Positions 20,463 through 20,714 of a DNA stretch of 21,924 nt are shown here, one piece after another. The notes under the pieces are model-generated. The model saw only the letters and a list, made by a program, of their open reading frames with translations, was not told the origin of the DNA and ran no database searches. The first letter of the stretch is position 1. Each line of letters begins with the position of its first letter. Origin of the DNA: a virus (lineage: Duplodnaviria > Heunggongvirae > Uroviricota > Caudoviricetes); the IMG/VR virus record IMGVR_UViG_2609459833_000005, positions 1-21,924 of that record; one strand, given 5' to 3'. A program made the position numbers and the translations under genes.

Positions 20463-20538
20463 GGCCCTTTAGCTCAGTGGTGAGAGCGAGCGACTCATAA
20501 TCGCCAGGTCGCTGGTTCAAATCCAGCAAGGGCCACCA
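20463..20538 (+). tRNA. ileZ: tRNA with CAU anticodon (Ile2-lysidine type or Met)
   Basis: Manual fold: acceptor GGCCCTT/AAGGGCC, D-arm GCTC/GAGC, anticodon loop CTCATAA, T-arm GCTGG-TTCAAAT-CCAGC, 3' CCA. Matches the ileZ-argN-argO cluster of lambdoid phages. Confidence 0.8.
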
Positions 20539-20547
20539 TATCACATA

Positions 20548-20624
20548 CCGCCATTAGCTCATCGGGATAGAGCGCCAGCCTTCGGAGCTGGCTGCGCGGG
20601 GTTCGAGTCCTCGATGGCGGTCCA
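20548..20624 (+). tRNA. argN: tRNA-Arg (anticodon UCG)
   Basis: Manual fold: acceptor CCGCCAT/ATGGCGG, anticodon stem CCAGC/GCTGG with loop CTTCGGA, T-loop TTCGAGT, 3' CCA. Confidence 0.7.
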
Positions 20625-20637
20625 TTATCAGCATCAT

Positions 20638-20714
20638 GCGTTGTTAGCTCAGCCGGACAGAGCAATTGCCTTCTAAGCAACCGGTCACTGGTTCGAATCC
20701 AGTACAACGCGCCA
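20638..20714 (+). tRNA. argO: tRNA-Arg (anticodon UCU, reads rare AGA/AGG)
   Basis: Manual fold: acceptor GCGTTGT/ACAACGC, anticodon loop CTTCTAA, T-arm ACTGG-TTCGAAT-CCAGT, 3' CCA. Confidence 0.75.

Follow-up and report, generated by a model that had tools for sequence, protein, structure and literature searches.

We examined a cluster of three transfer RNA (tRNA) genes, ileZ-argN-argO, at positions 20463-20714 of IMG/VR virus record IMGVR_UViG_2609459833_000005, a 21.9-kb stretch of Escherichia coli prophage DNA that we analysed as a whole (21,924 nt; hereafter, the window). ARAGORN called three tRNA genes and no others in the window, each of them on the + strand, and the RF00005 tRNA covariance model, run over the whole window on both strands, matched at the same three sites with 72.5, 53.2, and 65.7 bits in cluster order (gathering score 29; E-values of 2e-14, 5e-9, and 2e-12). 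The three tRNA genes are real, far beyond chance. Both programs and homology support each of them: ileZ (20463..20538, +), with the gene anticodon CAT, specifies a predicted tRNA-Ile2 in which position 34 is expected to be lysidine and which would read AUA; argN (20548..20624, +) specifies a tRNA-Arg(UCG) in its minor G37 allele; and argO (20638..20714, +) specifies a tRNA-Arg(UCU) that combines A37 with a rare C43 allele, leaving an A27.C43 mismatch. Spacers of 9 nt and 13 nt separate ileZ from argN and argN from argO, respectively. A preliminary description of this DNA had given these coordinates and the anticodons CAU, UCG, and UCU, and both were borne out, the coordinates to the base by ARAGORN and RF00005; the ARAGORN check that it proposed called all three genes with the anticodons as claimed, labelling the CAU gene 'Met'. 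It had also placed the cluster immediately downstream of a methylase, in line with our finding that the methylase open reading frame (ORF) ends 40 nt before ileZ. We regard it as highly probable that these are three functional tRNA genes, orthologues of ileZ-argN-argO of phage 933W, which lie in a non-Shiga-toxin (non-Stx) lambdoid prophage of E. coli beside potC and form a promoter-to-terminator unit supplying tRNAs for rare codons.

Identity and decoding of the tRNAs

The three genes recur in phage 933W (GenBank AF125520, Plunkett et al.) in an unchanged order and with identical spacer lengths of 9 nt and 13 nt, together with the same putative tRNA promoter (pT) and the same terminator hairpin after argO. 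Upon running the comparison with 933W that the preliminary description had suggested, we obtained identities of 76/76 for ileZ, 75/77 for argN, and 75/77 for argO, while the flanks of the cluster aligned at 94% overall. The argN copies differ by G37 here versus A37 in 933W and by U20a here versus C, and the argO copies by A37 here versus G37 and by C43 here versus U; to argO of NCTC9112, the identity is 77/77. The nearest E. coli K-12 genes are argX and argU for argN (69.6% each) and argU for argO (71%), and, the 933W counterparts aside, identity to any other compared tRNA was at most 74%, with the exception of ileZ versus K-12 ileX (89.5%). The K-12 genes ileX and argU share their anticodons and expected decoding with ileZ and argO, respectively, but they occupy chromosomal tRNA loci, whereas the phage copies lie in the late region of a prophage. 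As the 933W record already annotates the cluster, its promoter, its terminators, and its codon assignments (AUA; CGH/CGG?; AGA/AGG?), the locus is known and ordinary; it departs from the standard, and only mildly so, in the rare alleles of argN and argO and in a natural deletion variant described below. Some phage records give Met, Lys, and Arg at the cluster site.

The CAU tRNA is labelled 'Met' by ARAGORN, because the lysidine modification is invisible to the predictor; Met and Ile2 are not separable by anticodon-based tools. Many phage records likewise annotate 'tRNA-Met'. The Prokaryotic Genome Annotation Pipeline (PGAP), by contrast, labels the homologues tRNA-Ile, as does the 933W record, which also gives AUA as the codon. 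The acceptor stem of ileZ (GGCCCUU/AAGGGCC) contains C4-G69 and C5-G68, the two pairs on which lysidine formation by E. coli TilS depends (PMC1635315, PMC11947777), and A73, U12-A23, and C29-G41 could be read from the sequence as well. Position 11 is C, so that the A11-U24 initiator signature is absent and ileZ is not an initiator tRNA. Homology and the TilS determinants jointly identify the CAU gene as encoding a predicted AUA-reading tRNA-Ile2 and not a tRNA-Met. That it should instead encode an extra elongator tRNA-Met, such that the cluster would supply nothing for AUA, we consider very unlikely, since K-12 tRNA-Met carries U4 and A5 where ileZ has C4 and C5, and since ileZ is far more similar to ileX than to metT/metU (69.2%); its identity to metZ is lower.

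Both arginine tRNAs carry A20 and C35, with D-loops that read ...GGGAUA... in argN and ...CGGACA... in argO, and A20 and C35 are identity elements for arginyl-tRNA synthetase in E. coli. Among the K-12 Arg genes that we fetched, no UCG isoacceptor was found (argQ, argZ, argY, and argV have ACG, argX has CCG, and argU has UCU), indicating that argN adds an anticodon that the host lacks. In the decoding scheme that we propose, C34 of ileZ would be converted to lysidine by TilS, whereupon this tRNA would read AUA, while argN would read CGA and CGG, possibly along with other CGN codons, and argO would read AGA and AGG.

Folding of the bare sequences returned a cloverleaf for argN only, with alternative structures for ileZ and argO and unremarkable z-scores for argN and argO. 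We set this misfolding aside as counter-evidence, as unmodified tRNA sequences often misfold in silico and the covariance scores are decisive. An antisense ORF of 96 amino acids over the tRNAs (20495-20785) had no Pfam match and was taken as spurious; one phage record annotates the same stretch as 'hypothetical protein'. An origin of the cluster as the remnant of an integration site was rejected as well, given that it lies ~17.7 kb inside the prophage and that all three genes are full length.

Transcription unit, prophage setting, and cargo slot

Between the methylase gene and ileZ lies the putative promoter pT (20425..20453, +), which consists of TTGCAG, 17 nt, and TATTAT and is followed by a G+C-rich discriminator, CCTGCGCCC, and then by ileZ +1. 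It was recognized through its identity to 933W, where the same 29 bp are annotated as 'pT; putative tRNA promoter'. For comparison, we retrieved 125 IMG/VR loci with a 25-mer from the argN anticodon arm, 117 of which were aligned. Although several divergent classes of sequence occupy the 40 nt before ileZ in 112 of these loci, the pattern of TTG-N3, a 16-18 nt spacer, and TATTAT was kept in all 112, which provides good comparative support for pT as a probable real promoter. At the other end, the tRNA unit is closed by an intrinsic terminator (20729..20752, +; GGCTCGC-TTTT-GCGGGCC, then T6) that was detected by the terminator scan, by folding (-14 kcal/mol, z = -4.0), and by alignment with 933W, where it corresponds to the 'terminator upstream of the stx genes'; it is kept in nearly all IMG/VR loci.

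As judged from gene order, the cluster occupies the Q-to-lysis segment that is classic for lambdoid prophages. The RusA gene (17864-18229) is followed directly, at the place that Q takes in Stx phages, by the gene for a Q-like late antiterminator of the DUF1133 family (18238..18798, +; Pfam DUF1133, E=4e-104), the product of which also matches Phage_antitermQ (E=1e-7, 32.3 bits, cut-off 26); its coordinates follow the PGAP annotation of identical proteins. Next come a small conserved ORF for a hypothetical protein of 65 amino acids (19016..19213, +), with WP_000917768.1 in the same place in NCTC9112, SW070917, and Stx2a_WGPS2, and an N6/N4 DNA methyltransferase gene (19364..20422, +; Pfam N6_N4_Mtase, E=2.6e-42), homologues of which are annotated 'DNA-methyltransferase'. 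Beyond the window, near-identical prophages continue with a SASA-family esterase, a holin, a lysozyme, an Rz-type lysis gene, a terminase, and capsid genes. The whole order of RusA, Q-like gene, small ORF, methylase, tRNAs, slot, esterase, and lysis genes recurs in NCTC9112, in Stx2a_WGPS2, and in a second prophage of SW070917, and one figure of a published comparison (PMC3491183, Fig. 5) draws the order rusA-Q-methylase-tRNA-stxAB-yjhS-lysis for several stx2 phages.

The preliminary description had equated this arrangement with the one upstream of stx in Stx-converting phages. This applies to methylase-bearing Stx2 phages, such as Stx2a_WGPS2 (NC_049941) and the LC5678xx series of Stx2a phages, which have a like layout, but fails for 933W, in which the match begins only at window position 20312 and the methylase, intact here, is reduced to a 3' remnant of ~110 bp. 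The Q of 933W is, moreover, of a different type and lies ~440 bp upstream of the cluster, whereas the Q-like gene here encodes a DUF1133 protein. Stx2a_WGPS2 is collinear with the window from 18884 to 20763 at 95% identity, that is, over the small ORF, the methylase, ileZ, argN, argO, and the terminator, and collinearity returns from the STnc100-like region onwards (see below). The full module of methylase, three tRNAs, TerB, and DUF3927 is also present, at 95.7-98.9% identity, in non-Stx lambdoid prophages from commensal and uropathogenic E. coli (NCTC9112, ABU 83972, and ST131 strains, among others); that of NCTC9112, with slightly different alleles, lies beside yccA, whereas the window prophage lies beside potC.

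The synteny with the Q-like gene, together with three terminator-like hairpins, suggests that the cluster belongs to the late transcript, as the preliminary description had assumed. Besides the terminator after argO, these comprise a hairpin with the sequence CCACC-GGAA-GGTGG followed by T7 (18872..18892, +), which we read from the sequence ~75 nt past the Q-like gene, and a second terminator-like hairpin reported by the terminator scan (19200..19223, +), with its stem at 19200-19217 and a T-run in its tail, TTTTTTATTT. The former is a candidate tR' on the model of 933W, in which terminators are annotated past Q; the scan reported the same palindromic stem at 18872-18892 on the - strand. In the interval from the Q-like gene to the methylase, a consensus promoter scan did not yield any convincing promoter of the pR' type. 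Overall, we envisage a compact unit of ~330 bp, in which a sigma-70-type pT right after the methylase stop codon would drive the three tRNAs up to the intrinsic terminator and which would be nested in a rightward operon downstream of the Q-like antiterminator. As the unit has its own promoter within such an operon, pT would provide a basal tRNA output in the lysogen, and induction would raise this output to a high level once Q-modified RNA polymerase passes the terminators; host RNases would then excise the tRNAs from the transcript.

Directly downstream of the unit, homology to Stx2a_WGPS2 and 933W breaks off at 20763 and restarts at 21514, and these breakpoints delimit a variable cargo ('moron') slot of 750 bp (20764..21513), the site of stx2AB in Stx2 phages. 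No stx2AB homology was found in this slot, which instead encodes a TerB-family protein (20885..21316, +; Pfam TerB, E=9e-16), named TciA in some phages and with homologues annotated 'tellurite resistance TerB family protein' or tciA, and a small DUF3927 protein (21313..21477, +; Pfam DUF3927, E=1.6e-18), named TciB in some phages. Where 933W continues with stx2AB and Stx2a_WGPS2 with a 1328-bp stx2A-stx2B cassette, the window thus has TerB and DUF3927, and the prophage is not Stx-converting but a non-Stx relative of Stx phages. The right border of the slot is a conserved STnc100-like small RNA (sRNA) sequence (21543..21748, +; Rfam RF02076, 143.2 bits, E=4e-32), which also occurs downstream of stx2B in Stx2 phages at ~70% identity. 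In a census of the 72 IMG/VR loci that extend at least 2.5 kb past the cluster, it preceded the esterase gene in 71, while the slot held stx2AB in 19 loci, TerB with DUF3927 in 6, and neither in 47. About 14 of these 47 slots look empty, and others contain a TolA_C lipoprotein, an AraC-type regulator, or ORFs without family match. Examples of such other cargo (loci L066, L092, L104, L119, and L102) include a 142-amino-acid lipoprotein whose C-terminal domain is of the TolA type, a regulator of the AraC family, and ORFs (118 and 111 amino acids) without Pfam match. Given the conserved flanks and the varied content between them, the tRNA unit and the STnc100-like sRNA bracket a recombination-prone moron site.

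The wider layout was derived from Pfam searches on the window, PGAP annotation of near-identical DNA, and Rfam for RNA families. The host element is a non-Stx lambdoid prophage of E. coli beside potC, with its integrase end next to that gene at ~2.7-3.9 kb. The window begins with the end of an insertion sequence IS1 copy (1 to about 402) inserted in ymfA (DUF3592), the reading frame of which is shortened at the left end of the window relative to SW070917, and continues with potD and potC (825-2662) and, on the - strand, with a lambda-type integrase followed by an excisionase and an exonuclease (2829-3947). The early-left region encodes, on the - strand, the cell-division inhibitor dicB and the DicF sRNA (about 6960-7390, with limits of 6963-7386; Rfam, 62 bits), a placement that resembles Qin-type prophages. 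A relBE type II toxin-antitoxin system (8824-9305, -) adjoins the cI-like repressor, the cI-like and cro-like genes together spanning 9323-10194, and is followed further on by replication genes (about 10680-12180), by a hok/sok type I toxin-antitoxin system (16033-16357, +) in which the sok RNA (Rfam, 117.6 bits) overlaps the hokD start, and by a DUF968 gene (16805-17863).

Variation, prevalence, and a natural deletion

We found the tRNA genes to be much less variable than the DNA between them. Over 67 distinct IMG/VR versions of the unit, the mean heterozygosity was 0.018 for ileZ and 0.055 for argN (the latter excluding the 25-mer used for retrieval), compared to 0.12 for the first and 0.20 for the second spacer. 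The ileZ sequence of the window was present unchanged in 113/123 IMG/VR copies. For argO, variation was measured on ARAGORN-called homologues only, since loci without argO, or with a replacement for it, inflate the alignment columns; these homologues contained a compensatory C-G to G-C swap at linear positions 51 and 65 (12 copies each). Other changes in stems among the IMG/VR copies turned G-C into G.U pairs. This pattern of substitutions indicates that the tRNA unit is under purifying selection, as judged from the alignments.

The alleles of the window are uncommon ones. The exact argN allele with G37 (window position 20585), which creates a G36-G37 TrmD motif, was seen in 13 of 857 argN-carrying E. 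coli records and in 5 contigs of IMG/VR, compared to at least 120 there with A37. In argO, U43C (window position 20681) places the A27.C43 mismatch at the top of the anticodon stem, and none of the 89 IMG/VR copies was identical to that of the window; position 37 of argO is itself polymorphic, with G in 15/89 copies, including 933W.

The composition of the cluster varies to some extent. Among the 115 IMG/VR loci with enough flank, 78 had ileZ-argN-argO, 32 had ileZ-argN only, and 5 were rare variants; examples of the surveyed loci include L097, L104, L110, L111, L101, and L034. In single loci, an extra tRNA-Gly(UCC) was present or a tRNA-Thr(CGU) took the place of ileZ. The 326-bp unit as a whole is widespread: it matched 285 phage records, mostly Stx2 phages, as well as 3060 of the 5426 complete E. 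coli genomes, 2290 of which (~42%) had a match covering at least 80%, and, counting all matches, up to 13 matching places were found in one E. coli genome.

A natural deletion variant was found in SW070917, which carries the same potC-side prophage at ~100% identity. There, a clean deletion of 2165 bp (window 19254-21418 versus L010 34279-34288) has taken the methylase, the tRNA trio, TerB, and the 5' portion of DUF3927; a short microhomology of GGTGGGTGT type marks the junction. An IS4 element has also inserted in that prophage, where the overlap spans 12 bp (window 6724-6735). The second prophage of SW070917 (L136, 817-6223) contains an identical cluster, including argN G37, along with RusA and Q-like proteins identical to those of the window and a methylase; no gene is annotated in it between argO and a DUF6645 esterase-like gene. 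The shared module points to recent exchange or duplication between the co-resident prophages of SW070917.

Codon demand and function of the cluster

No sense codons are rarer in E. coli than AUA, CGA, CGG, AGA, and AGG, for which the host's own tRNAs are in short supply; phage-borne tRNAs are generally read as matching a phage codon usage that departs from that of the host. Upon counting these five codons, with 15 flanking host genes as the reference, we obtained 45.6 per 1000 in the 28 prophage genes of the window and 32.6 per 1000 in 14 late genes from the SW070917 copy of this prophage, compared to 13.5 per 1000 in the host genes. The excess is ~3.4-fold for the window prophage (odds ratio 3.5, p = 1e-21) and is also seen for the SW070917 late genes (odds ratio 2.5, p = 2e-8). 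The richest prophage genes are relE, with the highest value of 94 per 1000, the Q-like gene (75), int (67), and the cI-like gene (60), and stx2A, the cargo at the slot in Stx2 phages, reaches 87.8 per 1000. With about three times the host's use of rare codons in the prophage genes, the extra tRNAs most probably relieve a translational bottleneck, and they would do so for the phage genes and the adjoining cargo genes alike; a supply of scarce decoders for phage genes generally is the most likely role that the sequence suggests. T4, T5, and other virulent phages differ in that they are lytic and carry larger, unrelated tRNA sets, whereas a temperate phage here has a fixed trio with its own promoter and terminator and an adjoining cargo slot. 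Full-text literature searches on ileZ-argN-argO and on tciA/tciB returned nothing useful on function.

Several observations weigh against this role of the cluster as a supplier of rare-codon tRNAs. The consensus promoter scan missed pT, which scored 8/12 matches and fell below threshold, and the -35 hexamer of pT fits the sigma-70 consensus poorly (3/6). In 32/115 IMG/VR loci, argO was lost or never present, the window itself carries uncommon alleles in argN G37 and argO A27.C43, and the deletion in SW070917 shows that the cluster is dispensable for the prophage that carries it. The host codon reference comprises only 15 genes. The slot genes here are not rich in rare codons (TerB 21 and DUF3927 37 per 1000), and the late genes showed no excess of AUA (odds ratio 1.27, p = 0.57). 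The low load of the slot genes and the lack of a late AUA excess indicate that demand peaks in the early and lysogeny genes, such as int, relE, and the cI-like and Q-like genes, and constitutive expression from pT could be useful even to these. The pattern of transcription, the modification and charging of the tRNAs, and the benefit to fitness are what we infer from the DNA.

The tRNA genes might alternatively be largely neutral passengers, the ~330-bp unit and the STnc100-like sequence serving mainly as homology anchors through which lambdoid phages exchange cargo (stx, TerB, and others) by recombination, with little translational benefit. Such a role would suit the high variability of the slot past the terminator between conserved flanks in the 72 IMG/VR loci, as well as the persistence of a prophage from which the cluster has been deleted and the frequent lack of argO. 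However, the tRNA bodies are ~2 to 10 times less variable than the spacers, stem changes are compensatory, and the -10 hexamer is kept in 112/112 loci, none of which is expected of neutral DNA. We therefore find a predominantly neutral role improbable, while noting that passenger or anchor and codon-supply roles are not exclusive.

A role in counter-defence was considered as well. Phage tRNAs can evade tRNA-targeting defences, and colicin D cuts the anticodon loops of tRNA-Arg; phage-borne Arg and Ile tRNAs could thus replace host tRNAs that are cleaved or depleted in the course of infection or competition, for example, by tRNA-Arg anticodon nucleases such as colicin D, with the polymorphisms at purine 37 as escape variants. 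Position 37 is indeed polymorphic in both arginine tRNAs (G37 in 5/122 IMG/VR copies of argN and 15/89 of argO), while the tRNA bodies are otherwise constrained. Yet the window revealed neither a nuclease gene nor a target, A37 and G37 are both normal in Arg tRNAs (K-12 argX has G37; argU and argQ have A37), ileZ is nearly invariant, and the skew in codon usage is already a sufficient rationale. As nothing that we found supports a counter-defence view of the position-37 polymorphisms, we judge this role about as improbable as that of neutral passengers. Slightly more doubtful still is the combined proposition that the position-37 changes (A37G in argN here and A37G in argO of the 933W type) are non-neutral variants selected for escape from tRNA-Arg anticodon nucleases (colicin D or related toxins of defence and competition) and that the cluster acts both as a tRNA-replacement counter-defence and as a codon supplier; if true, the TerB/DUF3927 cargo ('tellurite / colicin / phage-inhibition') would fit a counter-defence theme.

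The tRNA cluster as a source of rare-codon decoders carries little weight as a discovery; its value lies in annotation. It identifies this DNA as the late-regulatory region of a lambdoid prophage and pinpoints the exact 750-bp slot in which relatives carry the Shiga toxin genes, and with TerB and DUF3927 in this slot, the prophage is not toxigenic at this locus. A selected, self-contained tRNA cassette beside a recombination-prone slot is relevant to the movement of stx and other morons between phages.

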